A stretch of DNA of 64,000 bases from Raillietiella orientalis (GCA_036172245.1 JAYWIR010000003.1:62001-126000), one strand, 5' to 3'; numbered from the stretch's first letter, positions 2,611-52,792 are shown. Notes: generated from the sequence alone by a model not told the origin. A program made the numbers and translations.

Positions 2611-5600
2611 ATGCCAGTCGGGAGGCGGCTCCCGTCGCGCAGTTCCCGCCTTCCCCGTGCCAACCGCGCAATGCGAGCGGCGAGACCTGGACTCGCTGCA
2701 CTTGGGACGCTTTCCAAATTCCAGCTCCCGTCGGAGTACTCGCCATCCCGGTTCCTCGGGAATTACGGTGGCGGCGGCAGCAGCAGGAGCACCTGCAGCA
2801 GCCCGCACCTCTCTGGCAGCAGCTCCCGGCTCTCCAAGAACTCCAGCCCGGACTACTTCTTCCACGGCGATGACAATATGATCGGCTTCTCCAACGGGCC
2901 GGAGATGTTCTCCCGGTTCGACCTCCACGAGAAGTTCCCCCGGGTAAGCCTTCCTGCCCTTTCGCGTCCCGGGGCGGGTCGCGCGGCCGCCGCCGCCGCT
3001 GCAAGACCCACGCTCGAGGGAAGCCCGCGCTGGCGGCGCCTGGTGGTGCGGGCTCGATTCCTCCTCCTGGAGAAGCATCGACACCCCAAGAAGTGGAGGG
3101 GGGAGGGTCGACGGTTTCATTCCCCCCCTGCAGGATGGCTCTAGTTGGCTTGCTTGGGTGCGGTGGCACCGGTGGAAGCAGCCGGTTGCCCCCGTTGACG
3201 GACCGGGGCTGGAAGCTGACTTTCTGGAGTCATTCCAGGAGTCAAGAGCCCTGCGGGGTTTCCCTCCGGTTGCTCAAAGGGAGCCGACCCCTTCTCGGGG
3301 TCGATCCCCCACCACGGACCGTGGAGCTGGTCTACACCCCCTTCGGGGGGACTCGCCTCTTCAGAGTATCAAGAAGCGAGCAGCTCTCTTCGGGGAGGCG
3401 CCCTCCAGAGAAATTCGGGAGCGCTCCTTCGGGATTCTCTTCGGAGGAGGGAATAGGGAGCGGGTTATTTTGGGGTGGGTCCCTGCGGAGAAGAAATTCC
3501 AGGATCGGGTTCCTTCCGGGTTCCCTCCGGGGAAAAAGCGAGGAGTGATGCCCTCTGGGGGTTCCTCCGGAGAGAATAAGCGGGGAGATTCCCTTCGGGG
3601 TTCCCCCTACCAAGTGCGATAAGGACGGAGCCTCCCTGGATTCCTAGCGTGGTCCCTACGAGGTCACTTCAACCCCCTCCTCTAACTTGAAGAGCCGCAC
3701 GCACTCTCTGGTGGCGTGGATGGTGGTGTCGAGAAGCTGCGTGGACGCCCCCCGAGGGGATGGGCTGTTCTTGCGCACTGCTCAAAAACCAAAGGAAAGG
3801 CCGAGAGGAAGACAGAGGAAGGAACCGAGGAAAGAATCCGAAGAGAGTTTTGGGTTCTTCCCCTCCCCCACATCCCTGTGCTCCGTTCGGACTAGGGTCG
3901 CTCCGCAGGGCGTGTGCGCCTCCCGAAGCAGGTCCGTTGCGAGGCCTCCTTTGAGGGCGACGTCCCCTTTTTCTTCCCGTCCCGCAGCGAATGGAAGGCA
4001 GGTCGCGGGGCGTCCCTTCCTCTCCCTCCGGGTGCCCCAGGGCCGGAACTTGAGAACCTCTCGCTGCCTCTTCCAGATCACCCACAAGAGGAGTTCCCTG
4101 TTGCTGGGCACGCCGAACAGGCACGCCAAGAACTCGAGCAAATGCACCTCTTCGGCGAACGAGATCCGCAACTTCAGCAGCAGCATCTCCCACTCGTCGC
4201 ACTCCTCGAGCGAGAACTGCAACTACAATCGCAGCGTTTCCATGTACAACCAGCATGTGCTGTCTCCGACCGAGGAGACCAGCCCGAGCGAGCTCAAGAT
4301 CGAGCAGAAGCGCGTCAGCTCGTCCTCCAAGACGAAGATCACCACGGACCGCTTTAGCTCCGAGGAGCAGACCGCCTCCGATGCCAGGCTCAACAAGGTG
4401 GAGGCTGGCAGCGTCAAGTTCGAGGAGAAATCGGCGTCCTCCGCTCGCAAGTCCAAGCTGGAGGTCGGCAGCGTGTCCTCCGAGGAGGCCAACAACAAGA
4501 TCGAGGTAAGGGACGGATCCACCCCGCACCCGCCCTCGGGCGCGCAGGCGGAGACGGTGCTGCTGCCCCTCCTTTTGGGGGAGGGGGAGAAGCGCGGGAG
4601 ATTTACCCCCACCCCGCAGGCGCCGGACGCGGCGGCATGCTGGCCTTCTTCCTCCCTGGGTTGGCGGACTCTTACCTGTCTCGGCTGCCCGGTGCGCCTC
4701 AGGACGAGTTCGGGATTCCTAGACCCGTTGCGGGAGCAGCACATCTCACGCGGGCAGTCGGAAACGCCCCCTCGTTGCTGACGACGTCCAGACAAGGGGG
4801 AAAAATGTGCTGTAGAGGGAGGGAGGGGTCGCGAAGCGGACGTAGTGGGGAGACTGCGCTCAGCGCGTCCACCGCCGCCACGCGAGTCGAAGACGAGAAG
4901 CCGCGGGCAGGACACTTTCAGCCGTTCTTCTTTTCTCCTCCTCCTCCCCTTCTCTTCTTCGTAGCTCCGGAGCCGCCATGGGAGGTCGCCCGCCTGCCCT
5001 CGTTCCTGCTGTCGCGGCCGCTGCCCCAGCGCGTCACGCCAGCTGAGGGCAGCGCCTGGGGGTGCTGCGGGGCGCGCCCTGTACCTGCCCGGTCTCCGCA
5101 GCCGTCGCTGGCTTCGTACGGTGTGGGCTATGAACTCTCGGAGCATCCGCCGCCAGCGCCCCCTCCTCGTGATAGAAGCTCCCGCCGCCGCAGCGCCGTC
5201 AGCCACCCGCGCTTTGGTGCTCTTCCGGCACGCCTATGACCTGCCGGATGGCGCGGCTCGCTCGCTGGCAGTCATCCCCGTCTCCTGCTGGCGGACGTGG
5301 CCAAGAAGACCGATGGGTCGGACGGCTCCAGGGAGCGAAGTTCGCGGGCGAGTGCGCCCTCAGAAGATGGCTTTTGCGGGAACACGGGGGTGGCCACTCC
5401 AGGAGCAGACTGAGAGCCGTTTAAGGCCCGGCCGCGAAAGCGGGAGGTGAGGCGGGACCTCGCCGAGCGTGCGGTCGTCATCTTCCCCGGGAGGGATGGT
5501 GGAGGGCGGAGACGTCTCCTGCTTTTCCGGACCTCTGAAAGGGCGTCCCCTCGAGCGCTCTATTAGAATGCCCCTCCCTCGCATCCGGGAAGACGGCATC

Positions 5601-8600
5601 GCTCCGCAAGCCTCTGCCGATTCCCGGAAGGGAGGAGACGCGGCGATCCGCGCCGTCCGTAAAGAGGGCGTTCCTGCCGGGGTTGCGCTGAGGGCGGCCC
5701 ACCTTCTGGGAAAGGGTGCGGCTGCCGGAGCACCGGAACGCAGCTCGGCGGATTTTCAGCTCCGGTCAGGTGACGGGTCGAGGAGCCCGGCGGCACGAAG
5801 CGGTGTGGTCCCACTCTGCTTCTCCTCCCCCCCCTCCCTCGGCCGATGTCGGGATGAGGGAGGAACCCCTATTTCCCGGGGAGATCCTGGGACGCAAAGG
5901 AGGAGGGGATCGCCTCGCAGCGGGAAGTGGGACATACCGGTCGGGGCCCGCGAGCGCGTCCTGTCAAGTCGCCCTCTGGGGCCGTCAGGTGTCTGCGGTG
6001 GAGAGCGCCTCGGGTGCTCCTTGGGCCATTCTCCGAGGAGCGCGTCTGCATCCAAACGCGCGCGATCTCCCCCGCAGGGACGAGCTGCTGCCAGGGAGAT
6101 GGAAGTACCCTGCGGCCACCTCCCCCACCGCCTTCCCGCTGTCTCCTGCCGCCCTCGCCTGTGCGGCCAGCCTGGACAGCCGGGTGCTTGCCAGAGGGGA
6201 CGACGACGACCTTGGTGAACGCAGGGCAGGCCGACCCCCTGGGAGGAGTGGGAGTCGGTCGCCAGCGGCGACCTTTGCCGGGAGGTAGGGAGGGGGGAAG
6301 GAGGGTCGCAAGGAACCGAAAGGGCGGGAGCCCTTTTCCTCCTCCTCCTCCGCGGTCCCTCGAGCGACTAGGGGTTCGCACGAGGGGTTCTTCCGGGTTC
6401 GCCTTCTCCCTATAGGCAACTCCCCACTCTGAGACGACCACGGGATCGCACCGCCTATCCATCTTACCTCGGGGGCAGGCGAGCATGATCCCAGGGAGAG
6501 AGGAAGCCTCGCTTTCCCCTCCACCTCGAGAAGGCTCGCTATACTCGGAAGCGGCCTCTCCCCCTCCCCTGGTCGGACGAAGGGGTCCACAGGGCTTCCG
6601 CTGCCTCCACAGGGCTGGAAGGGGTCAACGCGACGGTCCTACGCTGGGGACGGGTCGAGACGCCCTCCTCGACCGGACTGTGGCACGCTCGGGCCGACGG
6701 GGCAACTTCTGGTTGCGTCGCCCCCGGTGGGTGGGTGGGCGGGACTTTGCGGGATCGTTTCCTCCTCCTCCCCCGTTGCGGCGCCTCCCCTCCCTGCAGT
6801 CCGTCGGCCTCACGGCCCGGACGCGCTCGAGGTCATTTCCCAGGAGGCAGGGAGATCTACTTGCCCGCAGGGTCCTTCACTGACCCCCGAGGAACCGCTG
6901 CGGCTGAAGCCGGGCAGAGCCCCGGGGATCTCCTCCTCCCTCTCAGCTCGTCAGCAACTTCCAGGTGGTTTCCTCAGCCTCGGCGGCGCCTTCTGATCGG
7001 GATGGATGGGGAAGATGAGGCTCCCTCGTAGTCCGCTGATCCAGGGATCAGGCGAAATGTTGCCGCGGAGTCCTTGGGACCCTGGGCAGGATCGCAGGAG
7101 ACCCCCTCCCCTCTCGGTTCAGCAACGAGAGACCCGACTCCCCCCGCGGAGTCGGAGTCTCCGCTGCACGGACCGACAGATCCTCTACTTGCATGCTTCG
7201 TAGGACCGTGGGGCATCCGCCGCTCTTCGGGCACTCCAGCAAACAGGCCGTCGCTGAAGTTGTGACCGCGCAGCCCTGCTGCCCTCCGTTCCGGAGCTCG
7301 TGACCTCCCCTTTGGCGCCGTCTGCTGCTCGCTCCCCGCTCGCGATCCTTCCTGGTTCCGGGCCGTGGGCTTCGCCTGCTCATTCCCCATTCCGCAAGGG
7401 GGACGGGTGGGTCGAGATGGAGATTTCCGAGGGGAGCGCCATTCTCGTCCTCGACGGGAGGAAGGATCCAGGGATCGCCGGGGCGCACTCAATGCGCTGC
7501 CTTTCGCCTCCTCGCACCTCGCACTGCGCCCCCTCCCTTGCCAGGGGCAGCTCAATGGTGCCGGGGTTAGACCGATGGTTCGAGTGTTGCGCGCCCTCCC
7601 CCATCCCGGATTCCTCCCCTCGGGAGTTCAATGCGGGATGGACGCCTGCCACGGGAGCGTCGAACGCGTGCGCGCGCGCTGTCCTTGCCAGGCTCAGCGC
7701 GGTCGCTTCCTTCCGCGAGGTCGAGTAGTCGGACTCGAGGGGGATGCGCCCCTCAACCATCCAGTGCCACGTGTTTTCCGCCCTTGTTCCCCCGCATCCA
7801 GGAGGAGGCGGAGTCCCTCTGCCCGGGAGTTGTCTCAGCGTTTCCGCGCCTCTCGCGTGAAAGGGGGGGGGGCGTCCGTGCCTGCCCTGCCTCTCTCTCC
7901 CTTCCTGCCTCTCTCCTCCCTCCTCTTCTGTCTCTTCCTCCAGGAGGAGCGCTCCCTGCACGCCGGCGACACTATCACCCATGACAAGAAGACGTCCTAC
8001 CTGAATGCCTCCAAGCTGAAGACCGACAGCTTCTCCTCCGAAGAAGTGTCCGCGCAGGCACAGCGCGAGAAGCAGGTCATCAACCAGTCGTCGGGCACCG
8101 TGAACGAGTCTCAGTCACAAGCCTTGGTCAAGGAGAAGACGCTAACCGACCTGTCGACGGGAATTAGCACGAAGACTTCCGAGGTCTCGAGTCAGGTCCG
8201 TCCAGCCGCGCCCCCCTCCCCGGGTAGCACGACTTTCCAGCTCTGCTTCAGAATCGGACCCTGCTTAACAATGAAGTGACTTCCAGCAGAAGCCACTCGC
8301 AGAAGGTAACTTCCATCATCGAAGGCGCTTGGGAAGATATACTCAATCTTGAAGGTTCCCGCGACCCAGCGGGCGTCCTGTCGGACTGCTCCGAGCGGTT
8401 TGCGAGCGTCGTCGACTGGCTGAAGTCGGGAACCCCCGGCGCCGAGGGCGACGGAGCGTTCCAGGTCGTGGATCAGCTGAGCAGCATGATGGGCAGGGCT
8501 TGGAAGGTCCCCGAGCACGGGTTCGAGCTCGGGAGCAGCCTCTCGGACGTCTTGCGGGACGCCGGCGCGCTGGACCTGCTGCTGAGCAGCTGCGCATCCG

Positions 8601-11600
8601 AGGACGCCGGCGCGCAGCTCTCGTGTGCCCGCCTCCTGGAGCACTGCCTGACCCCGGCCAACCTCCACTACGTCGCCGAAAAGGGTCTGGACAAGGTGGT
8701 GCGGGTGGCGCGCCACTGTACGCGAGGCGGGCCCGAGAGCGCCCGCGTGGGCGTCGGCATCATCAAGAACCTCTTCCGAGGAAGCGAGGACGCCTGCGGT
8801 CACGCAATCCGCATGGGCGCCCTGGACGCCGTGCTGCAGGAGTGCAAGACGAACGACGTGGAGACGCTCCGGAACTGCGCCAGCGCCCTCGCGAATCTGG
8901 CGCTGCACGGAGGCAGCGAGAACCAGAGGACTATGATCAGCCACAACGTGCCCACTTGGCTCTTCCCGCTCGCTTTCCACGACGACGACAGCGTCAAGTA
9001 CTACGCGTGCCTGGCCGTCGCCTCGCTGGTGGCCAACAAGGAGATCGAGGCTGACGTCATCCGGTCCGGCTCCCTGGACCTCGTCGAGCCCTTCGTCCTC
9101 ACCCACAAGCCGTCGGAGCTGCTCGGAAACATCGTCCGCGACCCGCAGTGCCAGAGCAAGAGCTGGCTCCAGAAGCTGGTGCCCGTGCTACTGTCCGAGC
9201 GGAAGGAGGCGCGCAAGCTGGCCGCCTTCCACTTCGCCATGGAAGCAGACGTCAACAAGCGCAGGGGCCTCTCGCAGAGCATGAAGTCCATCCTCGAGGA
9301 TATCGGCGCCATCGAACCGCTCAAGGAGGTCGCCAGCTCGCCCAACGCCGCGGCGTCCAACTACGCCGCGGAGGCCCTGCGCCTCATCGACGAGGAAGTG
9401 CCGCACAAACTCAGCCAGCAGGTAGTGCTGTGGTCCGTCGAGGACGTCAAGGAGTGGATTAAGCAGGTAGGCAGGCGGGGGGCGGCGCCAGCGGGGAAGG
9501 AGGGAGGGAGGAGCAAGAGGAGGAGGAGGAACGAGGGGAAAAGGGCACGGGCTCCCAACGGATGCTTGGCGTTTCCAGATCGGTTTCAGTGATTTCTGCG
9601 AGGCCTTCGTCAGCAGCCGCGTAGACGGCGATATCCTGATGCAGCTGGACGAGGACATGCTGAAGAACGACATCAACATGAACAACGGGATCCTGCGCAA
9701 GAGGTGCGTGCCGACTCGACGACCTCTCTCGAAAGGGAGGAAGGGGGAGGGGGTCGGCGTCTTGCGGTGCGAGCTCAGGGGAGGAGGGGAGAGAAGCGCG
9801 AGAACCGTCGGCAGGAGTCCCTGCGCTCCCTCGGGCGTCCTCCTCCCAACGAACGACGGGAACCCAAGTGAATCGGGGTCCGCGGAGCATCCTCTGGGGG
9901 GCCTCCTGCGCTTTTCCCTTCTTGTTCTTGTTCTTCTTCTTCGTCATCTTGTTCCTCTTCCTCCTCTTCTTCTCCTTCCTCATGTTCTTATGCCTCTTGT
10001 TCTTGTTTCTCTTCTCCGCGCCTCCATCGCAGCGCCGCACTCTGCCGCCGCGTGCCCCGAAGGCGGGATCTTCTGCTAAGGGGATGCTGCCCCCCAGGCC
10101 GCTGCGTCTGCTCGCCGCTGTCAGGCGCCTTCCATCCGAGACCGGAACCACCTGGAGGTTCGTCCAGAACCTTCTATTTGTCCGGAAATTCGTATGGATT
10201 CTTCCCGCCGTCGTCGGGAACCCGGGATTTCGATTCCGGGCCCCGTTGGTGGCGCGCTGTTGTTACCTGGAGCTTGACTTGGAGCCCCACCCACCCGTTC
10301 GGTTTTCCCCCTCCTCAACCCCGAGTGCGTTCCCCCCCCCCCCCCTTCCCAACGTGTGACTGCTCCATGCGATCTGTCTGCCACCTTCGCGGCGGAGGAG
10401 GAGCAGTAGGAGGTGCTGCCTTTCGCGTGACCTTGCGGTGACTCGCGCGGCGGTCCGACCGGCGAGGGTCGCATGCCGAAGGAGACGAATTCGCATGGCA
10501 ACACTGACGCGAGCTCCTCTTCGCTGCGAACGGGTCGATCTCGCCGCCCGTGGTCCCCGCAGAGGATGCGCTGCCCATTTCTCGTCAGTCGTGAAGATCG
10601 GCTTCCCTTTCCTTCCCCTTGTCCTTTTTCCCGCTTCCCGGATGGATATCCTCCTCCTGGGGACACCTGACTATCCTGCCCCGTGTTTTCGGCGTTCAGT
10701 GCTTTCGGAGTTGGCGCAGGAGCCACCGAGCTCCCAACCCTTTCGCGATGCAGAAGGTCACCGCCGACCTCCCTCTCTGTTCTGGATCAGCACGGAGTCC
10801 CGCTCCCTCCGGCGTGGCGGCGACTAGGAGGGTCTCCTCACGCCTCTGCTGGCGCGGGGCCCCCGATCCGCGCGATTCCGGCGGCAAGGAAGGGGCGACG
10901 ACCACTGCGGCCGAACAAAGTCGATTCGCCCCAGAAGGCGGAGCTGTAAGCGGGTTCTTCAGATCTCCGGTCTCTTCTTCTTCCTCCTCCTCCTTCTTTT
11001 TCGTCTTTTTGTTCTTGTTCTTCCTCTTCTCCTTGGCGCGCTCCTCATGCGCGGTCCTCCGCCTCCGTTTTCCGATGAATTCGGCCTGAGGCAAAGGGTG
11101 CAAGGCTTCCGGCATCCGGAAAGCGTTCGTCCCCTCTTCCCGGACGGTAAGTGGGCGCGAGTGCAGAAAGTGGGGAGGCACCTGTTCCTTCAGGCACGGG
11201 ACAGGGCTAGGAGGCAAAGTCCCCCTGGACCTACCGCGTGGCAGGGACCTCGGTTCACCTGGACGCCCCGGAAATCTTCCTTGCTCTTGGGCAGTGATGC
11301 CCTCTCTCCGTTGTTTCAGTCCTCCCTCGTCTCCGCGCGCGCGCCGACCTCTTGACCGCGTGCCGTGGTCATCACGCCCCCGCCTCCTCCCGAGAGCTGC
11401 TTTCTTGTCTTTTCAGGAGGCTCCCTTCGGCGCACTCGGTGTTCCTTTGCTTCCCTGGCTGGGAAACACCGCAGTGGTCTCTTCCTGCTCGGGGTGAGGC
11501 TTAGATTCCCGTGGCTCCGCGGTCGACGCCGCTGCGGTTGCCGGCCGCGGTCTTGCGACGAGGAGCCTCGGAAGGTTTCTGCCATGGTTGTCGCTTGCGC

Positions 11601-14600
11601 GAGCACCGGAAGTCGAGGTGTCAGAGACGACCTGTGCCTACGCTCACCCGCTCCGACGCCCAGGGGCCTCCCCCCATACGGGCAGATGGCGAGCGGAAGA
11701 GAGGCACAGTAAAAGGGTGGGGGGTTGCCTGCTGTAGCTCCCTTGGGCCACGAGCCTCCCCCGCAAGAGTCAGCGGAGTAGGGGAGGTGACGTGGCTTTG
11801 TCGCATCATCCCGGGTTTGGTGGTCGGTCCGTTTTCCCGTTGTTTTTTTCCCCCGGTCGGATCGGCCCTCGGCGTTTCCCGCAATGGAAGAGGCGCAGCC
11901 AGCGGGCGACGGCGCCGCACAGGGAGCGATCAGGTGCCTTGCCTTCGTCTGCCGGTTGGGTGGCGCGCGCCACGTCGCCTTTCATCTCCCCCTTCCTCTT
12001 CCTCCCCCCCCCCCTTCTGTGGAGACGATGGCGTTTGCGCCAAAGCGCGCGGTGGAGTGCGCGGGTCAGGCACCACGCCGCCCCCGGAAGAAGAGAAGTG
12101 GAAAGCTTGCGCACCGGGCATCCCTTTGGCACGCAGGGAGGGTCACGTCAGCTTTCTCGGCCTGGAGGAGGGGGAAGGAAGCGGATCTCTCCGCATCCTC
12201 CGCCTGTGCGCGGAATACCTTAGCTGCCACGATCGGTCGGGTCACAGAAGCCCTCTGGCTGCTCCTCATGATGCCTGCGCCGGTGGGTACTTCGGGAACG
12301 AAAGTGCCGTAGTGATGGAAACAAGTGCCGAGGTCCATTGCTCTCTTCCACCAGCGTCGAGAGCATGTGGCACGTGGCGGAGCTCCACGCAGGCGCGTAC
12401 CGCCGGCGACTGCGCTCGGGGGAGGAGGAGGGCGCAGCTGGCAAGGGAAACTTCGCTCCAGGCGAGCTCTGAACGCGAATCTTCAGCTCTCGAGCGTCTC
12501 CAGATAGAAAGAGGGAGGAGTGGATGATGGTGCGCGGGACAGGAAGACGTTCTCTGGAGCGGATGATGGCGCGCCTCCCCGAGGGATCGTCCTCCTTCCC
12601 GCTCACCGGCCCTCTCGCAGCAACCCCACGGATCAGCCAGACGACTGTGGAGGCAGCCGGGGAAGGAGAGCGGTGGCGCGAGACCACCGATGGCCGCAAC
12701 CGGTTGGCTCTGTCCCAGAATCACACGGTGCGCACCCCGCTTCCGCACGCTCGGAGCCCCCATTGGAGTCACTGGGTCTGGCAACTCGGTGGGATCATGT
12801 CGGCCGCCCCAGCCCTGGTCTTCTCATCCCACTGTGGGAAAGGAAGTCGCTGGAAGTGGAGGAGTTCCGCTAAATGTCGGGCCCGGGAACTGGGGGGGAA
12901 GGAGCTCGCTCGCTGCGCTCTCTGGACTGGGACAGGGTTGGGGCGCCCGGCGCAAAGCTCAGGACACTTGTGGGAGGGGGGGCTGAGTGAAGAGTTGGCA
13001 GAGTCTCCGCCTCCACCGAAGCCTCGAGAGCGACCGTAGATCGGGGGACTGCTATGGAACGAAAGAGGGAAGGGGAGGAGGCTCCTCCGCTCCCGGGGGA
13101 AGACACAGACGGTGGAACTATAGCTCCAGCCGCTTCTGCTTCCGGAGCTGAGGATCCTGCAGATCGATCCGTTCTCCTGGATACGCGAGCGGGAAAGGAC
13201 GGGATGGGCGGAGGGAGCCGTGCAGACAAGGGAGAGGCTGGGAACTTCCCGTTGCCTCTGAGTCCCCCGTGGACGCTCGACGATCTTCAAATGACCGCCA
13301 CACGCTCTGCGCCACAATTGACACATGGAAGGGGTGGAGACGGAGGAACTGGTTCAGCGGATGATGATGCCTAGCGAGGTAGAAGAGAGCACCCTTCTTC
13401 TCCGCCTGCTCCCCCTCCTTCTCCTCCCTTTCCTCTCGTCCCTCTCTCCCGCCCTTTTTTTTCGCAGGGCCCTGCATTGAGGGAGATGCAAAGGGAGGGA
13501 GAACAGACCGGCCGAGGTCCGGTCCTCTGGTCGGCTATTTTTGGCTTCCCGGGACTCCGGACCGACGATGAGACGAACCCCTGGGGAGGGAGGAAGATAG
13601 GGACGGGTCCGTCGAGTAGTTAGGCGCCGAAAGCGTGGCCTCGTTCCCCCCTTTTTTCGCAGGAAGGGTCGCCTGTCCTCCGCGATGTCCCGCCCTGCAG
13701 TTCCACGTGACCTCTTTCCTTTCGTCCCTCCACCGGGGAAAATTCGGAAGCGCCCCTTCAGAGTTCTCTTCAGAGGAGCAAACGGAGAGCGGTTCCCTTC
13801 CGGGTTCCCTTTGGAGAAGAAACGAAGAATGTTGCCCCTCTGGGAGTGCTCTCTGGAGAGAGAACGAGCTATAGTGGTTCCCTCCGGGGTTCCCCTCCCA
13901 AGCGTGAGAGGAACGGACTCCTTCCTCTTGAACCCTTCCTGGATTCATAGGGTGGTTTCCTCCCGGGGTACCCCCATCTTGAGGAGTCACTGCACGCACC
14001 CTCGGGCGGCATGAAACCGTGCCACGGAGCTACGTGGGCCGCCGCCAGGCGCACGACGGTCCTTGATGTACTCGGTGAAGGAGGAGGCAGTGAGGAATGC
14101 TGCGGCCGGATGCTCGCGCGCGCCGCCGCAGGAGAGGGGAAGCTGGCCAATGCGGGTGGATCCCTGCTGCGACTCGCTCACGCGGCGGCCGCAGAGGCCT
14201 CGGGAGACGGGGTCAAGCGATGAAGACGACGACGTGCAAGGCGTCAGGCGCAGAGAGAACGTGCCCGTTGCCTCCTGGGGGGAAAATCCAAAAGAAAAAA
14301 GGGGCGGCCCGTGCTTGGTCTTCTTCGCTTGTGGCCGTTCGCGAAGGGCAGGCGGAGAAGGAGGGTTGAGTTGGTGCTCCCCAGTGCTCTCGCTGCATTC
14401 CTCGCTATTCCGCTCCTTACCGCGCTGCCCTCTTTGCCTCATCCCTCGACGGCATCCCGCGGCGTGGACTTCTCCCCTTCGGCAGAGCGAGAGAGTGCGA
14501 GGGAAGAGGGACCACGGATCTTCACAAATCTTCCCCTCTCCCGAGGTCAAGACCGGCTCTCCAATCCTTCTCTGCCTCTTCCCAGATTCATGAGGGAGCT

Positions 14601-17600
14601 GAACAACCTGAAGAAGATGGCCGACTACTCCAGCTGCGACGCCACCAACCTCAACCACTTTCTCCGGCAGCTGGGCGTCGAGTTCTCCGTGTACACCTAC
14701 CAGCTCCTGAAAGCGGGCATCCACAAGGATGCCCTCCAGTTCATGAGGGAGGAGGCCTTTCTCGTCCAGTGCGGCGTCAGCAACACCATCCACCGCGCGC
14801 AACTTCTGGACGCCATCCGAAGTAAGGAGGGGACGGGAAGGGGTCTAGGAAAAAAAGGGACGGGGGAAGGGAGGATCCGGAGAGAACAGGCGTCCTCGAG
14901 CTCTTCGTCTGTTCCCAGATGAGGTCTCCTGCAAGATGTTGTCGGAGGGGACGCCGAACAAGACGCTGGACGTCTTCATCAGCTACCGCCGCTCGAACGG
15001 GTCTCAGCTCGCCAGGTGGGTCGTCTCCTGGGTGCGGTCCTCCCTCTCTCTTTGAGCGCGCACTGGAAGAGCGAGGGGGAGGGGTGGTGGTGGAGAAAGG
15101 CGCTTTCCCAGTGCTTGCTGACGCGTCTTTGGGCACTTCGACGGGAGCACGGGTTCCGCTGGACTCCGTCTTCACTCCGCCACCATCTTTTTGCGCCGGA
15201 GCCCCCGTTCTCCCGTCGGACCGGCTGGGGTGAGGGAGTGGGGGGATGAAGCCATGAACTCTTCGGCGGCGGCTTCCGATGAGCCACGCGTTGAGCAGCC
15301 TTCGTTCTTCGTGGAGTCCAACAAGAGAACTCCCCCGGACCCTTGCCCCGATCGCATCTCCCCCTCCCCCCCCGAAGAAGGTCTCTGCCGTCGCCTGCTC
15401 TCCTTCAGCGACGAGGCGACCAATCAGAGGGCCGAACGAGACCAGACGGATTTTCTCCGGCCCTCTTCAGGGAAGACGGTGATGGGACTGGACCTCGTCG
15501 CAGATCTCAGCTCCGCACCGGAAGCAGATCAGATCGTCCTTCGCTTCTCCCTCCCCTCTCTTTGCTCTCCTGTTGCTCTCCTTGTTCCCTGGACTCCATC
15601 TCCGTCCTCAGGGCCGCTCTGAGGCCTTAAGACACAATGCTGCCGTCACGCAGTTTTTTTCCTTATCCTCGCAAAGAACCAGCAAGCCGTGGTGCCCGAG
15701 GAAATATCGAGAAACATTAGACAAAGAGTCAGAAGGCTAAGAGAGGACGTGCTGATGGCCGACCCACCCTCCCCCTTGAAAAAAAAAAGAAACTCATCAG
15801 GATGTGGTTACGGGGATGTCGGGAATGCAATCTTCGTGCTGTGCGCGCTTGCACTCTGAAGAAGTTTCTCTTGACCGTCTCCGACCGCGCGAGCGCTCAA
15901 CGCTCCTGCTGTGACTCAGACGGATCTCTCTCGATTTGCCACTCAAACGGTCGCATCCGCTAATCCTGGAGACCGAGAATCCCAGTGTCCTGCGTGTCGC
16001 GCTGATGCGGATCCTTCTAACGGCCGTTGCCTTGCATTTCCGACGGGAAGCCCTGCGTACCTCCGTCCGGAACCCGCCTGCCACCTCGAATCCGACCTCG
16101 ATCGCCCGCTGCGCTACACTCTTAGACGCGCTCTTTGTGCGGAGCTCCGAGTCCTCGTTCCCATCAACTCCTCGACGTATCCTGTTTCTCGGGATTGCTG
16201 CAACCAACGAACCAAGGTGGAACCAAGGAACGGTGGCTACCGCTCCTCATGAAGCTACCGCTCAGCCTTAAGACACGATGCTTCCTAAACAAGATGTGGG
16301 CTGTTCAGGAAGTGCCATCACCTCACGCGCTTCCTGCTTCCCCTGTTTTTTCCCGCAAGGCTCCTTCGGGGTTTTCTGAAATTCTCTCCCACTATCGATG
16401 CTGCTGAATACTGTCAAATCCCCCCCCCCCTTCCTCCTCCTCCTCTTTTTTTTCTTTCTCTGCGCAGCATCTCCATTCCGGTCTCACCAAGTCACCGAGG
16501 GACCGAGACGAATCCGTATCAGCAGTGAGCTCCTCAGTTCCCCCTTAACGGGAACATTACTTTTCACTTTTTCTTGCAAACATTCCATCAGTTTCGCCAA
16601 GCACCGAATACCTTCCTTTGTGCAGTCGGGAGAAGTTTTCCTTCGCTTCTTTTCCTTCTTTCTTTTTTTGTCCGAGATAATTAGGGATTGCATAAATCGC
16701 AGATGAGTTGGGGGGGGCGGGGGGGAGGGATCGTAAAACCGAATTGCCTTCCCTCCCCCCCCCCCCTGCCTTCCCTTTCCGAAATCAACGAGCAGCAGCA
16801 TTTTCGAGGACGGAATCTTTGGATTTTTTTCCCGTTTTGTACGTGCTATCGTTAGCAGCATTCACTCGAAGTGACGACCCACGAGCTCGCGCCATTCTTA
16901 ATCCCCTCCTATTCGTGTCCCTATTAATAGACCGCGCCCCCACCATTGTCAATCGCAATCTGTTTATATTATAGGTAGTCTTAATACGCCGCAGCCGCCG
17001 TTGTCGAATTCTTCCGGGCGATCCTTCGCATCGGCTTGCTGACGAGGAAACTCCGTCCAGGGAGAGCGCGAGCGTCGCGTGCAACCGTTGTGCCATCCGT
17101 GGCGGTTCGGGCGGAGGCCACCCGCGGACTCGCGGTGAGGCGCAGTGAGCCTCGGCAGGGAGACGTTCCGTCTCGAGCCCTCGGAGGTGCCTTCTGCCCT
17201 CCCACGGCACGGCGAACGGAACGCTCCTTCGGATTTTCTTTTCTTCTTTTTTTTGCGCCCCGCAGGCTGCTGGGCAGAAGCGACGACTACGCGCAGTTGG
17301 GAGTTTGATAACCTCAGGAGCATTGGGAGCGCTCTCCTCCCTCCTCCCTTTCCTACGTACTCTCCGAGGTGCCCTGATTTCCAGTTCGGCTTCGGGGCCG
17401 TGCTTTCGTTCGAGAGTGCTCCTGTTCTCCAGCCGCTTCCCTCGGCTCCCTTCAAGGTGTGCGCATCGTCGTGACGGGCCCGTGGAGCTCTTCCACCACA
17501 AGAGAGGGAGAGAAGGGAGTGCTCTCCTCCTCTCTTTCTCGCGTTTAAAGCGCTCTTGCCGAGATTTTCTTTTTTGCTCCTTCTCACGTGTGCTCCTGTC

Positions 17601-18980: not shown

Positions 18981-19851
18981 TTTTTAACGGCAACAATTGG
19001 ATGGGCCCCTCCATCCAATTGTTTCCGATTGGATTGTTGTCCAATTGTTGCTCGGTGAAATGGCAGCTCGAATTTCGGATCAGAGGAACTCTTTGCCTCG
19101 AGGGCGGGAGGGCAAACAGAGACTGAGATCTTTCCGGGGCTCCGCCCCTGGGCGACGTGAGGGAACGCCCCCCTCGCGCGCGCGCCCGCCCAGTTTCTGA
19201 CGGCTAGTTCTCCCCACGTAGCCTCCTCAAAGTGCACATGCATCTCCGAGGATTCAGCGCCTTCATCGACGTCGAGAGGCTGGAAGCGGGCAAGTTCGAC
19301 AACAACCTCCTGAACAGCATCCGCCAGGCGAAGAACTTCCTGCTGGTGCTCACGCAGAATGCCCTGGCGCGGTGCGTCGGAGACGTGGAGTGCAAGGACT
19401 GGGTCCACAAGGTGAGGGAGGAGTTTCCGTCGCCCCCGCCCGATGCCGCCGCTCTCATCCCTCAGGAGATCGTGACAGCCTTGCAGACGGGGTGCAACAT
19501 CATCCCGATCCTGGACAACTTCCAATGGCCCGACCCGAAGGAGCTCCCGGAGGACATGCAGGCGGTGTGCTTCTTCAACGGGGTGAGGTGAGGAACGATC
19601 ACCCGCGTTCCCGGTTTTTCCTCCAGGACCCCCACCACCTTCCTCCTCCCAGGTGGATCCACGATTATCAAGATGCCTGTGTGGACAAGATCGAGCGGTT
19701 CCTGTCCGGGGAGACGAGCAGCAGGCCCCTGGGCCGGATTTCCGGGTGCTCCGCCAAGGAGGAAGGAGACTGCGCATTCAGCCCCGGGCAGCCTGGAGCC
19801 GCCTCCTACAGCAGGACGCACAGCCACGAGTCCAGGGACTCCAGGGAGTGA
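2611..19851 (+). CDS. SARM1: SARM1/Ect4-like NAD+ hydrolase (N-terminal extension, ARM, SAM, SAM, TIR), spliced, about 1065 aa
   Basis: Hand-built exons with GT-AG introns and consistent phases: 2611-2943, 4077-4505, 7944-8195, 8252-9466, 9579-9703, 14586-14821, 14919-15015, 19222-19411, 19466-19587, 19653-19851 (TGA). SARM motifs: ARM 'ANLALHGG', 'WLFPLAF', '[15 protein letters not shown]'; SAM '[15 protein letters not shown]', 'GILRKRFMREL'; TIR '[21 protein letters not shown]', '[13 protein letters not shown]', 'KDWVHKEIVTAL', 'LPEDMQAV', 'WIHDYQ'. The 5' end is uncertain: ATG 2611 follows an in-frame TAG at 2512, but an in-frame acceptor at 2541 or later ATGs (2671, 2878) are possible. 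Confidence 0.95.
2990..3800 (+). mobile_element. tRNA-derived SINE, near full-length copy 1 (SARM1 intron 1)
   Basis: B-box-like GGCTCGATTCC at 3051-3061. Body aligns by eye with copies at 13.7, 32.2, 32.8 and 55.1 kb. Contains about 40-bp internal subrepeats. Confidence 0.7.
13690..14045 (+). mobile_element. Same SINE family, 5'-truncated copy (SARM1 intron 5)
   Basis: 'aaattcggaagcgccccttcagagttctcttcagagg...cctggattc...cttgaggagtcactgcacgcac' matches 3411-3720. Confidence 0.65.
17750..18850 (+). mobile_element. Highly decayed I/Jockey-type LINE RT in SARM1 intron 7
   Basis: 'TSCQPVT' (SYRPISL-like), 'LVADV' (FADD-like), and 'LVSAVPMYG...[17 protein letters not shown]' (post-RT helix pattern). 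Confidence 0.45.
18916..18985. repeat. (TG)n microsatellite followed by poly-T
   Basis: Read directly from the sequence. Confidence 0.95.
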
Positions 19852-32189: not shown

Positions 32190-32640
32190 CCCGCCGCCAG
32201 TGTGCGCCACGACTGCGTTGGCTGCCGTGAAGCGCCGGGCGTCGCGGGTTCGAATCCTCCGCCCGGCGAAGCATCGACCCCCCGAGAAGTGGAGGGGGGA
32301 TCGTTGGCTTTCATTTTCCCCTCGTAGGATGGCTCTGGTCGACCTGCTTGGGTGCGGCGGCACCGGTGGAAGCAGCTGGATGCCCCTTTGACGGACTGGG
32401 ACTGGAAGTTGACCTTCTGAGGTCATTCCAGGACTCAAAAAGCCCTGCGGGGTTCCCCTCCGGTTTATCAAAGGGAGCTGACCCCCCATCGGGGTCACAT
32501 CGTCCCCCTCCCCTAACTTGAAGAGCCCCATGTATCCTCTGGTAGCGTGGATGGTGGTGTCGAGGAGCTGCGTGGATGCCCCCCGAGGGAGTGGGCTGTT
32601 CTTGCGCATTGCTCGAGAACCGAAAGAAAGGAAAAGGAAA
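32190..32640 (+). mobile_element. Same SINE family, internally deleted copy
   Basis: B-box GGTTCGAATCC at 32247-32257. Colinear with 3040-3300, then jumps directly to 3665-3800. Confidence 0.7.
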
Positions 32641-33420: not shown

Positions 33421-35618
33421 GATGGGACCCTTCGCCCCCCTCCAGAGCGTCCGCTCCAGATGCTTCCGACCTTCCTGTTACCTCGCGGAGCGACCCAGAA
33501 TCCTTCGCCCTCCCTCGGGTCTGAGATCGTCCCTCCCCCCTCCCGATCCCATCTGCCCCCCTTCTCCCCCTCCCCCCGAGAGAGCTTGCTGCCAGAGCGC
33601 AGCCCGCATGAATCGAGGCTCCCGTTCCGAGTGTGCCGCCATGACGATTCCACTCCACACCCCCAGCCCCACTCGGTTCGGCCCCGCCGTGGAGCAGCAG
33701 GCTGCGCGCTGCTTGTCGGCCTGCGTTCTAGTTTTAGACTTCAGTGCGGGGAGATCTTCCGGAAGCGTCCCCCTTCGCTTTCGTCTCCTCTTTGCAGAAG
33801 AGCCATCAAAGGGGGAGAGGGAAGAGAAGAGGGCGAGGAGGGAGGAGGGGGGGGGAAGAGAGAGAACCGTTCACGCTCTCTCCCTCGCCCCAGCACTGAA
33901 AAAGTTATGAAATCGGAAACGAACCTTGCTTAGTCTGAGGGTTCTCGTGTGAAGTTTCTCCCCTCTCCGGCATTCTGGGGGGGAAGGGAGATCGCCCCGT
34001 CTCTCCGTTCCTCTGAGGGAAAAGGCAGGCAAGAGGACGGGCAGCTCCTGGAGACCGAGGTCTGCGTCTCCTCCTCGGGCGGGTTCCCCGCTCGCCTTTC
34101 CGCGGGACCCCCAATCGCAGTGGTCCCGGAGGAAGCATCTGAGCCCCAATCCTTTTGCCAGGAGCGCGTGCAGCCGATCGCCGTACCCCGCAGGCGGAAT
34201 CCTCGTTCAGCGATTGCCCGCTGCAGTTGAGTAATCCTGGTTACGAGCCTGTGAGGGGACGAGCGAATGGCAGACTCTTGCGATAAGCGTGGGAACTCTT
34301 GTCCGCGTTGCCCCTTCCCTCCTTTTCTTTGGCTATTCGTTGACCAGATAAAATGCTTGCGAACGTAGCATTGGAAGGGCTGCTAAGCAACCTCGTTCCA
34401 AGGGACCTAAAAAGCTTTAAAAAAAAAAGTCAGCACCTCGCCGTGCTTCCCACACAGTTGGGAAGGGTTCCAGTGTTTCGTTGCTTGATCTGTTTACTCT
34501 TGAAGAAGGCTGACAGTCCTATCCTGTACGAAAACGAGGGAGCCATCTTTTTGGCGAGATTGAAAAGGAAATCAGATTTCTTGTTTGTTTGTTTTTTTCC
34601 TGCTTCTGTTTTTACTTTACATCTCGTTATGTAGAGAAGAAGGTTTTTGTAAGCATGTGAGCTGTCTCAGTGCTCTTCATCTCCGCCTGTTCAGTCATGT
34701 AGCTGATTGAGGATTCTATCGTTAGTATGACAGTTTAATAACTAATAAACTCTGTGCGCTCAATCTACGTGAGCTCACTCTTGTGTCAAACAGGACTGCA
34801 ACTGTTTAAAAAAATTGTTTTCAGCGTCTGTTCAAGGAGGTAGTTATCAATGGATTTAGTAGCGGTAGGGTAAAGTATTGACAAAATAGAAGATAAACAG
34901 AGTTGAACACGCTAAATGTAGCTATCGTGTGCATTAGAGTGGAATTAAATGGAAACGGTTATTTAAAACTTGGGGTTAACGAGTCGAATGAGATTGACGC
35001 TATGTGCAGCATGAAATAATTAAATCTAATTTGAGGGCGATATGCTGAAACATTTCCAGCTATGAATGAAATGAAACGCCCGTGTTCCTCGTGAACACGT
35101 GGTAATTAACATAATAAATACGAGCATAGAAGCAGCTATTCAAGGTTTGTGATATTATTTGTGTCCCCCTTTCCCTCTCCCAAGATTTTGTTCCTTTTTT
35201 TCCCAAGAATGAATTTATCCAAGAACCTAATTGAATAATTATTCAGTAAGTGTTTTGGAAAGAAAGCATGATTTGAAGTGCTTTTATTTCACATCTCAGA
35301 ATCAACTACAAAAAATTTCGTGTCTGATACTCCCATCATATGAAAAGTTCCTATAAAAATTTACAAACATTTATGGGAATTCAGCCGAATGATAAAATCC
35401 ACGGGCGTACTGGACGTCTACAACCTTTCTCCATTTTCTCCATTACAGTAGATCAAGATAGATCATTTTTGGTATACAAAAACATAAATAGAAAAAAAAA
35501 ATGCACTGTCTGATATGAAAGTTAACTAAGAAGCTTTAAGGGATCGGAAGGTTTTTTTTTTTCGTGTGTTGTGTTCGGAGGAAAAAAAAATTACCTTTTC
35601 TGAAATATATCATGTTGT

Positions 35619-35660
35619 CATATATATATATATATATATATGACAACATATATATATATG

Positions 35661-35741
<81 letters not shown>

Positions 35742-35772
35742 TGTATGTATGTATATGTGTGTGTGTGTGTAT
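35619..35772. repeat. Compound microsatellite (TA)n/(CA)n/(TATG)n/(TG)n
   Basis: Read directly from the sequence. Confidence 0.95.
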
Positions 35773-36214
35773 GCGCACATATTACACTGAGCTCAGCCTA
35801 CCATTATTATTACTCGGCACGTATTGCTACCGGAAAAAAAAAAAGAGGAAAAAAGAAAAATCTGAGTGAGACTGTCGAATGATAGAAAATGAAATGCAGT
35901 ACAACTGGCAATTCTCTTGTATTTCGTGATTTCATGAGCGCTGGGCTAAGCATCAATTTATGTACAGATGGAAGGGAAAGCGTGAGCGTACGTGCGGAGT
36001 GCTGTGGCTGCGGGGTGCTAAGGCTGGAAGCAATTTTGTCTTTTTGTGTTATGTGTCAAACATGTTCTCAGGGTTATCTTTGAACTATGGTTTAAAAGCC
36101 CTAAGTTGCCCTTACAGTCTTCTTTTTTTTTTTGCTAAATATTTTTTTTAAAAAAAAAATAATTTCAAACAAACATCAAATCTCATCTGCGAAAGCTGCT
36201 TTCTGCGAAAAGCC

Positions 36215-49312: not shown

Positions 49313-52300
49313 GGTTTTTCATTGGTTTAAAATGTCTTCTAGAAATTTCAAAACAGAAACAAAATGCCATATTAGATCAAATATAACTTGTCCAGTAGAT
49401 ATCCACTAGACAGTGATGCACTTAAGCTGAGATTATATATGCATGTAAACAGAATTGGAAGAGATATCTCAGGTTAGCTTTTGACACTGGCTTATCATAA
49501 AAGTGGTAATCTTTTGTGGTGTCATGAGTTGTGATGTAGTTTACAGGTTTTTCACAGTGCTCTTATAGTTGATGTGCTGCTGCTTGTGATAACCTTAATG
49601 TGTTTCATTAAAGCAGATAAAGCATGGATGGATTGTCTAATGAGGCCTCAACTTGACATACTGAAATAAATATTCCTAATGACAGTTGTTTTATGAATTT
49701 CTGAAGACTGTATTACGTATTAAATTATTACAAAGGTAGCATTTGATTTGATATTTGAATGTAATTTGAAATGAAATATGTAAACATGGAACACCATTTT
49801 CGATATTTATTTCCTATCAGTAGAACTCTAAATGTTTCTGAAAAACATCTATGAGAAACTGTCAGTTTAAAATCAGACTGGTGCCAACAAACTGAAATTT
49901 CGGGGGAAATATTAGTTAATAATTCATTATTAATTGAAACCAATTATTCAATCTTTACATCAGATCTCGTGAAAAGAAATTAAGCACATGTAATTGAAAA
50001 GTAAAAAAATACAGGGAGAGAAAGAAAGGCACATGAATAAGAAGTTCTGAAATACAAGCGAACTACTGAAGAAATTACGCATAGGCACTCAAAATTTGCA
50101 AGTTCTACTCTTATGGGAATGTGATAATGAGATGCAGCCATAGCACACACGCATCGATTTCTGAATTTCTAACTTCACTGCAAGAACTATGTTGATAAAG
50201 CTTCATTATTAGGCAAGCCTTTTAGATGTCCACGCCTTCCCCTATTTATTTGTATTATCAGAAGTTACAGGATATGAAAATTCATTTGCAATGAAGTTGT
50301 AGTTTCAGAGAAGGAAAAAAGAACAGAGTCATTTCGAGGATAGAAAAAAGAAACACAAATCTTTCGTTGTTATTTGTGTTCATATATGAATTTTGCAGTT
50401 TCAGTGCTGGTGTGCCAAAGCCCCCCTGTTATCTAACTGTGAACTTTCACTTTTTATGTTTCATTTATAAGTTTTAACTATTAGTTCAGCTCATCACATA
50501 AATGTTATAAGGAAGCAAATATGTTTTATGTATATTCATAGCATTATGTCAAGTACAAAATCAAAAATTCCTCTAATTATATGAGCTTGAATTAAAAGTT
50601 TTTTCAAATCAGGAGCATCACAGAAAATGTCTTAATCACCACATGATATTGGAATTCAAGGGTTTCCTGGAAAACATGCGTAGTTTTGATTTTGCTATAG
50701 GAGCAGAATTAAAACTAAAGGCAGTTAAAGGCGAGTTACAGTAATAATCGATTATACTTTAGTTTCCAGTTTGAAGAATATTTACCAATTTTGCAGCTAA
50801 TTTCTTTTTCTGTTTTTAAAGAATGTGAAATTGCACCATTAATTCGAATGATTTGTGTTCTGTTACTTCCTGCAATTCTTTCGCAGATTTTGATCAAAAT
50901 CATGTTGGAATTGATTTTCGTATCGTTTGTATCGTATTGTAATGTGATACTTTGTTTTTAGTCAGAATGTGCCATTTTGATCAACTGTGGAGCTACTGTT
51001 GATTTAATAGAGCTTTTACAGCCACCAGAAGATTTGATCTTTTATGTAGTGGACTCCCACCGTCCCTTGGATGTTTATAATGTTTATAATAGTAAACAAG
51101 TATGTTTTCTGATGAAACCTACTGAAGAAGATGGCATTCCACATTATGAAGACATCTTCTTTGATGAGGTATGTTATGCATTGTGCTCGTAAAAAGCATT
51201 GTTCATTGCTCAGGACACGCAATCTGACGGAAATGCTGATGATGCTGACATTGTTGATGGAAGCAGCAGTAGGGCGCAATTAAAGAAGGAGGAAAATCGA
51301 GAGAAAGTTCTGTTTGAATATAAGCAGTTCAGTTTCTATGGGCTTTCAGTAAGGTCAGTTAGTTGTATGCTAGATTCATTATTATTCTCAGAGTGCTGTG
51401 CTGCTCTTTGATTTGGCATGGATGCTAAGTAAGGATAGTAATCACCTTCTTTGGAGCGCCATTGTAGGTCTCACAGAGCAATTCATGTTTGGAAAGATGG
51501 ATAAAGCATTGTTTATTAATGAATGTATCAAACTGCAAGGCCACATGTCTCGTCTGAGTCACCTAATGCACAGCACTACTCCTGATTGCATGCACATCAC
51601 GTATAGAACAGAGTAAAATCCTTAGATAAATATAAAAAATAAGTTAATTTGAATTTTTTAGATTGCAACTTCCTTTGTATCGTCATTGGAGCCTCATTGA
51701 GAGCATCAAACATGCTGAAGTTATGGCCTGTAAATTTCATTTGTGGACAGTAAAGGGACAAAAAAAACTATCAGAGTTTTTGGCAGAGGCTGGGTAAGAA
51801 GGACTAGTTATTGCAGTTTTCTAAGAGTGTTGATGCAGCTTACCATTAGCCCAATGCCATCAAAAGTATTTTGCAATGGATGTGCAATTGCGCTCTGAGT
51901 TGCTTAGCTTAATGACTAGTAAGGCAGAGAAATATAACTTGGATGGGCTATTGTGGGGATGCTTTCTACTCCAGTATGGCTACAGACACAAATTTCTGGC
52001 CTCAGATGTGGTGCTGGCGTGTAATGCAATGTTGCAGAATATAGTATGTGCCAATTCTGACTCACCAGCCTTTGCATGTTATGCATTTTAGGAATGTAAA
52101 TCTCTGAGTGATAGGTTTCAGGAAGCATGCGAGTGCCTGTCAAGGTAAGTCCATAATGAATATTATGTTTTTATAGCTTCACTAGATCTTATTGTCAGTT
52201 GTATCGAGGCATCGAAAAAGCCAGGTTACAACTCTGTGCTATTTATCGAGAGGTGCACACACTTCTCAACACACATCAAGTAATTTCTGCTGGACCCTGT

Positions 52301-52792
52301 CTCTATGCTATTATACAAGAGGTATCAGCTATCAGAGCAGATTCAGTTTTAACTTTCTACAGAGTAATCCTGATACCATGCACTTTGGTTCACCACAAAC
52401 ATTGATAAATTTAGCCAGAGTGTTGTTACATGCGTATGTTAGCTCTGCAAAAAATAGGAAATGCCGGAACCTGCCTTTGATTCTTAGTGCATCTGTATGG
52501 GGTAATCCTGGAGATGCATTGCTTGTTGGTCTTCCACCTCTTGCTGAGAACTCTTTCAAAAAGTATGTGTTTTGTATCATTAAAAGTCTCCTGCTAATGG
52601 TAAGGTAGTCTTTTAGGAAAAGCTTTTGAACAGGCAGCTCTCAGTTGTGATGTACAAATGAGTTACCAATTCTTTGATACCTCAGGTAGAGTTATGCATT
52701 GCACGTTGTTATAACGTATGTATTCAGTGATACAGATAAAGATGGATGAGCGAACAAAATTCGTGGATTCCTTAATAAGCTTACTGAGTTAA
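47619..52792 (+). CDS. CDC45: Cell division control protein 45 (CMG helicase subunit), about 544 aa
   Basis: Exons 47619-47669, 47940-48092, 50962-51168, 51214-51348, 51392-51612, 51662-51793, 51839-52043, 52092-52144, 52186-52321, 52363-52562, 52609-52685, 52728-52792 (1635 nt, in frame). Motifs 'DVDGICACTILQHL', 'YTLVPV', 'LINCGATVDL', 'VVDSHRPLDVYNVY', 'LWSAIVGLTEQ', 'LYRHWSL', 'GKAFEQAA'. ATTAAA follows at about 52807. Confidence 0.95.
49274..49309. repeat. (GT)n microsatellite in CDC45 intron 2
   Basis: Read directly from the sequence. Confidence 0.95.

Follow-up and report, generated by a model that had tools for sequence, protein, structure and literature searches.

The stretch of DNA studied here, in the following called the window, comprises 64,000 nucleotides of Raillietiella orientalis (GCA_036172245.1 JAYWIR010000003.1:62001-126000); all positions are counted from its first letter. 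It carries on its + strand a multi-exon gene of the SARM1 family, which shows the domain order ARM-SAM-SAM-TIR and ends at a stop codon at 19849-19851. Our main subject is the allosteric pocket in the ARM domain of the encoded protein, i.e., the site that in known SARM1s takes up nicotinamide mononucleotide (NMN) and nicotinamide adenine dinucleotide (NAD+). Most ligand-contacting positions of this pocket are changed in the window protein, while the catalytic motifs and the ARM-side motif of the autoinhibitory ARM-TIR lock are kept. A tblastn search of the 64-kb window with four full-length arthropod SARM1 proteins finds a single, collinear locus and no second SARM1 copy within the window.

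The most upstream part of the gene is an N-terminal coding segment at 4272..4490, for which tblastn reports 33-48% identity to the N-terminal regions of the Limulus, Strigamia and barnacle SARM1s; its limits are approximate. A low-complexity N-terminal exon at 7944..8195 (tblastn; acceptor AG 7942-7943, donor GT 8196-8197) lies directly upstream of the ARM exon and is separated from it by a mini-intron of 56 nt (8196-8251). The ARM exon itself (8252..9466; best in-frame acceptor AG 8250-8251, donor GT 9467-9468) covers the ARM domain in full and the beginning of the first SAM domain (SAM1), the remainder of which is found in the exon 9579..9703 (AG/GT ends; tblastn 54-63% identity). The second SAM domain (SAM2) has its own exon (14586..14821; AG/GT ends; Pfam SAM_2 E = 3e-7), followed by an exon that encodes the SAM-TIR linker and leads into TIR (14919..15015; tblastn; AG/GT ends). 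The TIR domain continues in the exon 19222..19411 (AG/GT ends; Pfam TIR_2 E = 5e-4), which holds the alpha-A helix, the BB loop (19268-19309) and WVHK, and in the exon 19466..19587 (AG/GT ends), which opens with the codon of the catalytic Glu (19466-19468). The splice model ends with the exon 19653..19851, in which WIHDY (19654-19668) precedes the C-terminal tail and a TGA stop. All of these parts lie on the + strand. Pfam Arm and SAM_2 matches are found in the gene, and sequence matches to Protein Data Bank (PDB) entries span ARM and SAM1; the Pfam TIR_2 match, obtained on one TIR exon alone, reaches 20.9 bits and is thus under the Pfam cut-off of 28.

In the splice model, all junctions are of the AG...GT type and one frame is open from 7944 to the stop. 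The spliced translation includes DWVHKEIV with the catalytic Glu, the BB-loop stretch and WIHDY, and its TIR alpha-A stretch reads SLLKVH. The motif WLFPLAF, i.e., the ARM side of the ARM-TIR lock (human F255/P256), is kept at 8957-8977, which documents the presence of the motif and not the contact. The catalytic-Glu reading presupposes the removal of a predicted intron of 54 nt (19412-19465) that has GT-AG ends, lies precisely between WVHK and the catalytic Glu and is in frame without a stop codon. That is, its retention would insert 18 residues ahead of the catalytic Glu. Taken together, the locus is a predicted SARM1-family NAD+ hydrolase gene that is intact from the ARM exon to the stop. 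The initial annotation, a reading of the window's sequence that preceded this analysis, had proposed an intact SARM1 gene. From the ARM exon onward this is borne out by the open frame, the GT-AG ends and the stop codon, and the features it had named as kept (W103, WLFPLAF, the BB loop, the catalytic Glu in WVHKE, and WIHDY) could all be located in the exons or in the spliced translation.

We mapped the ligand pocket by HMMER alignment to the PDB chains of the human SARM1 and the fly (Drosophila) dSarm ARM domains. There is no gap at the ligand sites, and counting along the alignments reproduces the published fly numbers W385, H392, Y396, R437, H473, K476, H599 and G600, which are the fly NMN contacts according to PMC8758145; our fly contact list is taken second-hand from this source. 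The same paper assigns pyridine stacking to W385, phosphate binding to Y396, R437 and K476, a ribose contact to H473 and NMN contacts to H599 and G600, with the human correspondences W385 = W103, R437 = R157 and K476 = K193. For the human enzyme, PMC9780360 gives W103, R110, E149, Q150, R157, H190, K193, S316 and G321 as NMN contacts, where R110, R157 and K193 form salt bridges to the phosphate.

Respective positions in the window are all encoded by the ARM exon. The pyridine-stacking Trp (W103/W385) is kept as TGG at 8501-8503, and so is E149 (8639-8641). Phosphate or ligand contacts are lost at R110/H392, which is replaced by F (8522-8524), and at fly Y396, replaced by S (8534-8536). Further downstream follow Q150 to H (8642-8644) and R157/R437 to L (8663-8665), then H190/H473 to N (8768-8770), K193/K476 to R (8777-8779) and H194 to G (8780-8782), where the original Q150 and R157 are each found in 100% of the 54 canonical representatives defined below. 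In the ARM6-7 loop (9146-9151), the position Q320/H599 is Q, and G321/G600, again a G in 100% of the canonical representatives, is changed to C. The phosphate clamp is thus S/L/R instead of Y396/R437/K476 in fly numbering, and F/L/R instead of R110/R157/K193 in human numbering. Among the core pocket residues (W103, Q150, R157, K193, G321), 4/5 are changed and W alone is kept. The allosteric nucleotide pocket retains only the stacking Trp and Glu149, and ribose and amide contacts are altered as well by the changes of His to Asn, of His to Gln in fly numbering and of Gly to Cys. A pocket of the NMN-gated class, i.e., one with the five core residues plus those at R110/H392, E149, H190 and the 320/599 position, is not what the window protein carries.

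The alignments to human SARM1 also contain an E155A equivalent, and they reproduce the whole set of substitutions proposed beforehand (Q150H, E155A, R157L, E189K, H190N, K193R, H194G and G321C equivalents). This list was correct in all its entries and incomplete, since R110/H392 to F and Y396 to S had been missed. The three peptides on which it was built are all found in frame +2; two of them span 8756-8797 and 9137-9169 as had been given, while the first covers 8627-8665 and does not start at 8630.

The changed residues lie in a domain that is readily recognised. Sequence matches of the ARM exon are strongest for the Drosophila dSarm ARM chains (E = 6e-108), and E-values of 5.5e-65 and 3e-62 are obtained for C. 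elegans TIR-1 (ceTIR-1; 8p2m) and the human SARM1 chains, respectively. An AlphaFold2 model of the residues encoded by 8450-9400 (52-row alignment) shows a predicted local distance difference test score (pLDDT) of 95.7 and a predicted template modelling score of 0.94. When compared by Foldseek with the dSarm ARM domain bound to NMN or vacor mononucleotide (VMN; 7m6k/7lcz), the model reaches template modelling (TM) scores of 0.91-0.95 at a root-mean-square deviation of 1.6 A and 56-57% identity. Next in rank are human SARM1 and TIR-1, and unrelated armadillo proteins reach a TM score of only about 0.5. The compact eight-repeat SARM1 ARM fold is therefore predicted to be kept. Model confidence is lowest (pLDDT 81-82) in the ARM6-7 loop, which closes over the ligand.

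To relate the pocket changes to background divergence, we aligned ARM homologs. In total, 281 rows cover the domain, from which 88 representatives remain at 90% identity; 54/88 share 65% identity or more with the Anabrus protein and are called canonical. The window ARM domain is 52-61% identical to these 54 sequences (mean 58%), compared to a mean of 76% among the 54 themselves. Considering the columns that are at least 80% conserved within the canonical set, 7/9 pocket columns are changed in the window protein vs. 52/204 of the others (Fisher's exact test, one-sided, p = 0.0021). The 75 columns with at least 99% conservation include 4 pocket columns; the window protein differs at 8 of the 75, and three of the pocket columns belong to these (p = 0.003). 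Using the gene's own background rate of 0.25, the 8/10 changed pocket columns yield a binomial p-value of 4.8e-4 and the 4/5 changed core columns (W, Q, R, K, G) one of 0.017. These p-values describe this gene alone, since it was picked for its pocket changes.

All five core residues are often kept in relatives with equal or greater background divergence, e.g., in P0131, P0128, P0130 and P0139 (0.24-0.28) as well as in P0195 and P0175 (0.43-0.44). Overall, 63/88 relatives have no core residue changed, while one, two, three or four changes are found in 9, 5, 6 and 2 of the 88, respectively, and 3/88 have gaps in a core column. The claim of the initial annotation that the substitutions cluster in the NMN/NAD+ pocket is thereby supported, as they are denser there than expected from the ARM background (7/9 vs. 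52/204). Nor are they common in canonical arthropod SARM1s, given that 63/88 relatives keep the core five; two circumstances that the annotation had named as refuting it are therefore not observed. An altered pocket is nevertheless not unique to this gene: at least 2/5 core residues are changed in 13/88 non-redundant relatives. The window protein, with four changes, ties with the most extreme of these.

Relatives with altered pockets (1-4 core changes) include the 'sarm1-like' proteins of Amphibalanus (P0059) and Planococcus citri (P0151), the second unit of the Strigamia protein P0001, P0137, P0159, P0179 and others. K to R is also observed in P0059 and P0159, and W to R in the Planococcus citri 'sarm1-like' protein. 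The altered relatives share 45-59% ARM identity with the window protein, the canonical SARM1s 52-61%. Since no altered relative is closer than the canonical SARM1s, the pocket change in the window looks independent. An altered copy coexists with a canonical copy in Strigamia and in both barnacles. The Strigamia maritima model P0001 (1682 aa) contains two SARM units in series (~401-1068 and ~1131-1644), the second of which is very divergent and has the altered pocket; it is probably made of two tandem genes that gene prediction has merged. In each barnacle, two SARM1 loci are found on different contigs (P0008/P0059 in Amphibalanus, P0014/P0089 in Pollicipes). These form two sister groups, and the pocket of the second copies has drifted in part, K to R in Amphibalanus being one of the changes. 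We considered whether the window gene is an ortholog of the barnacle 'sarm1-like' paralog, with which it has N, R and Q in the pocket in common, and rejected this because the barnacle clade (Shimodaira-Hasegawa-like approximate likelihood ratio test (SH-aLRT) support 100) excludes the window sequence. Full-text literature searches surfaced no report of arthropod SARM1 copies with altered pockets and no study of the altered relatives listed above; supplementary alignments may hold such residues. In invertebrate SARM1 relatives, the core five are either all kept, even at high divergence, or several are lost together, a pattern that may merit study.

With regard to its placement, the gene is found within the clade containing all named arthropods in the SAM+TIR tree (46 rows; SH-aLRT 96), without a supported sister. 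It also lies among arthropod sequences in the ARM tree (61 rows), where again the sister is unsupported. A weak grouping with other long branches in the ARM tree was not used, as it may result from long-branch attraction. Kinship with nematode TIR-1 is disfavoured both by the E-values (5.5e-65 vs. 6e-108 to fly) and by the SAM+TIR placement in the arthropod clade, and P0192 was discarded as a stand-in for TIR-1, since it is closer to human SARM1 than to TIR-1. Domain-wise, the TIR identity to arthropod SARM1s (78-87%; best match a decapod with 87%) is within the range of deep arthropod pairs (78-95%), while ARM (57-60% vs. 63-94%) and SAM (54-63% vs. 59-92%) fall below the respective ranges. 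Close orthologs were not found: word-indexed protein searches (longer and near lengths) and a complete HMMER scan against the representatives yield no sequence above 61% identity.

Mutant data from known SARM1s allow the pocket changes to be related to function. NMN and VMN both fail to activate recombinant human K193R, and the human W103A, R157A and K193R variants do not support vacor toxicity (PMC8758145). For the dSarm ARM domain, an NMN affinity of about 6 uM is given in the same paper. Human W103A, R110A, K193M and D317A/R do not respond to NMN, and acid activation is still possible for them (PMC9780360). Fly K450R, which corresponds to K193R, has normal basal activity but shows no NMN induction and does not rescue axon death; K193R is furthermore cited to have a dominant-negative phenotype in mouse neurons (both PMC9788811). 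According to PMC10675840, ceTIR-1 is regulated by neither NMN nor NAD+, human W103D is a strong gain-of-function variant, and FP255-6RR is an activating mutant.

Given these data, we consider it probable, with moderate confidence, that NMN/NAD+ sensing via the ARM pocket has been lost in the window protein. Besides the excess of pocket changes over the background, this reading draws on mutants of the human and fly enzymes, in both of which the single exchange of K for R suffices to stop NMN induction (PMC8758145 and PMC9788811). The SAM pair (ring), the TIR domain and the ARM-side lock are present, such that the machinery of a predicted autoinhibited NADase would be in place. NMN would not be bound productively, and NAD+ would probably not be bound at the ARM site either. 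From the loss of productive NMN binding it would follow that NMN does not induce the enzyme and that the NMN/NAD+ ratio does not gate it. The enzyme would then remain at its basal level or be opened by another cue, comparable to C. elegans TIR-1, which works without nicotinamide-nucleotide regulation. On the evolutionary side, the pocket would have been freed from constraint in the lineage of the gene, be it after a duplication (with a canonical copy elsewhere) or in a fast-evolving single-copy lineage.

Several observations weigh against this reading. The whole gene evolves fast, with an end branch of 0.8 in the ARM tree (median 0.16) and of 0.61 in the SAM+TIR tree (median 0.14). The SARM1 coding sequence has a GC content of 0.88 at third codon positions, the ARM fraction of G, A, R and P residues (GARP) is raised to 0.277 (0.212-0.261 in canonical relatives) and that of F, Y, M, I, N and K (FYMINK) is lowered to 0.177 (0.192-0.274). 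Because of this skew, GC pressure is likely to have driven part of the ARM divergence, i.e., GC-biased drift probably contributes to its general level, and since the whole protein is both fast-evolving and GC-skewed, the divergence is in part not specific to the pocket. The gene had initially been called otherwise conserved, which applies to the catalytic and lock motifs and is overstated for the whole protein with its long branch and its ARM and SAM identities of only 57-62%. The pocket statistics cover 9-10 columns only, from a gene that was chosen after the changes had been seen. No orthologs that could show conservation of the new pocket residues were found in the protein searches (at most 61% identity). 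Furthermore, the R at K193 stays positive and the H at Q150 could add a contact, such that the binding mode of NMN may be changed. Finally, a basal or locked state is not guaranteed, because pocket mutants go either way, as exemplified by the gain of function of W103D (PMC10675840). Composition drift alone is nevertheless insufficient to explain the pocket: four or more of the pocket substitutions, among them R to L, G to C, H to N and H to F, oppose the GC pressure by going to GC-poorer codon classes, and we therefore rejected GC-biased drift as their full cause.

The long branch and the skewed composition also bear on alternative explanations. They would fit a protein that is still an ordinary NMN/NAD+ sensor, in which the changes are compensated (e.g., Arg for Lys, His for Gln) within a fast-evolving, GC-rich lineage; the kept W and E149 and the one remaining basic residue point in the same direction. 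We regard such compensation as unlikely, given that K to R by itself ends NMN induction in human and fly (PMC8758145, PMC9788811), that either R157A or R110A is enough to eliminate the response (PMC8758145, PMC9780360) while both positions are hydrophobic in the window protein, and that relatives of equal or greater divergence retain the core five. The opposite view, i.e., that the pocket has been re-tuned such that the ARM domain senses another small molecule (e.g., a pyridine compound with less charge or no phosphate) whose binding would still release the ARM-TIR lock, draws on the four changes that oppose the GC pressure of the gene. It is also in accordance with the kept stacking Trp and ARM fold in a confident model, and with a site that is less basic and more hydrophobic, where F, L and C replace R/H, R and G. 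Given the retention of WLFPLAF and of the TIR alpha-A helix, the lock would continue to require some signal to open. The absence of orthologs above 61% identity in the protein searches, however, leaves this view without relatives that show the new residues conserved, and since the 13/88 altered relatives display no common new pattern, release from constraint is the more likely look of the data. Overall, we assign a low probability to the re-tuning and, likewise, to its specific form in which the pocket was rebuilt around the Trp (with Phe, Leu, Cys, Asn and Arg) for another endogenous or xenobiotic pyridine-type ligand and would act as a natural switch orthogonal to NMN/NAD+. If true, the rebuilt pocket together with the 13/88 altered relatives would make SARM1 ARM domains an evolvable family of small-molecule sensors and not one NMN sensor.

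The coexistence of altered and canonical copies in Strigamia (fused two-unit model) and in the two barnacles (two loci each) raises the question of whether the window protein could be a natural dominant-negative paralog, which would co-assemble with a canonical SARM1 via the SAM domains and damp the activation of the ring. The dominant-negative phenotype of K193R in mouse neurons (cited in PMC9788811) would fit such a role. We hold it to be quite improbable: there is no second copy within the 64-kb window, and the catalytic residues, which are not needed in a pure inhibitor, are kept. Identity of the window protein's SAM domains to those of canonical SARM1s is just 58-62%, which makes co-assembly itself uncertain. 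Decay of the copy, or a sequencing or assembly artefact, could in principle account for the long branch and for the lack of a relative above 61% identity in the protein searches. This is very hard to reconcile with a frame that is open over seven exons with all GT-AG ends, with a TIR domain that is 78-87% identical to arthropod SARM1s and with an ARM model of pLDDT 95.7. Moreover, the 42% ARM divergence consists of in-frame substitutions, unlike a pattern of read errors, such that we consider decay or artefact extremely unlikely. Loss of NMN/NAD+ sensing in an otherwise complete, predicted NAD+ hydrolase hence remains our preferred reading. It corresponds to the NMN-blind protein proposed by the initial annotation, whose alternatives of a sensor for another metabolite and of a dominant-negative paralog would be improbable.

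Outside of the SARM1 gene, the window shows a pronounced compositional structure. In 2-kb windows, the GC content is about 55-67% over 2-34 kb, which includes the SARM1 gene, except for about 40% near 22-24 kb, and 32-49% over 34-56 kb. Opposite the ARM exon, the - strand carries an antisense frame of 331 codons (8192-9187). Long frames without stops are numerous in the GC-rich half, and this one most likely results from the base composition and does not represent a gene. The AT-rich half contains a CDC45 gene with two exons (51834-52608, + strand; Pfam CDC45 E = 4e-16 and 7e-7), the first of which is about equally distant to fly and vertebrate chains while the second is closer to vertebrate ones (E = 2e-13 vs. 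2e-5 for fly). Searched among longer-length proteins, a CDC45 exon yields no match at E <= 0.001; the gene indicates no more than an invertebrate source that is not fly-like. Pieces of a dispersed repeat are found about 29 kb apart (3036-3125 / 32232-32321 and 3654-3800 / 32485-32631) with 77-85% identity. In one repeat piece, a GGTTCGAATCC-like stretch presumably resembles a tRNA T-arm; ARAGORN predicts no tRNA in the window, and an Rfam scan finds no Rfam family therein. A long microsatellite of the TA / TG type is located at 35540-35880.

Programmed axon degeneration is executed by SARM1, an enzyme that is also a drug target. NMN, NAD+ and neurotoxin metabolites act at its ARM pocket. A protein that combines an intact catalytic engine and lock with a dismantled phosphate clamp could thus serve as a probe for NMN-free opening of the lock and for the residues that are enough for NMN sensing. 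Among known SARM1s, fly dSarm (7LCZ, 7M6K, 7LCY, 7RTC) shares the domain order with the window protein and shows 56-58% ARM identity to it. The window protein has also kept the TIR domain, the BB loop, the catalytic Glu and WLFPLAF. In contrast, 7/8 fly ligand contacts differ in the window protein (H392F, Y396S, R437L, H473N, K476R, H599Q, G600C), with W385 as the only one kept. The dSarm variant K450R carries just one of these changes and yet is not NMN-inducible (PMC9788811). Human SARM1 also has the ARM-SAM-SAM-TIR order and shares W103, E149, the FP lock motif and the catalytic Glu at an ARM identity of about 39-40%, while R110F, Q150H, R157L, H190N, K193R, H194G and G321C equivalents set the window protein apart. 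Using the residue roles from PMC9780360, two members of the human phosphate triad R110/R157/K193 are lost in the window protein and the third is altered.

Engineered and natural SARM1s with disturbed sensing provide a second type of comparison. The engineered dominant-negative SARM1 consists of K193R/H194A/H685A, of which K193R is the part that occurs in the papers used here. The window protein resembles it in the R at the K193 position and in the loss of His at the H194 position (here Gly), but keeps the His of WIHDY (the H685 equivalent) and has many more pocket changes. With 35% identity (Foldseek, 8p2m), ceTIR-1 is not close kin. PMC10675840 emphasises for it that autoinhibition is weak, that the ring is a 9-mer and that a TIR alpha-A residue diverges, while the lock motifs of the window protein are canonical. 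The likeness to ceTIR-1 is one of state, i.e., it is a natural SARM1 regulated by neither NMN nor NAD+, as would be expected by analogy for the window protein. A natural SARM1 unregulated by NMN/NAD+ is thus already published with ceTIR-1 (PMC10675840), and the window protein would be comparable to it in this respect.

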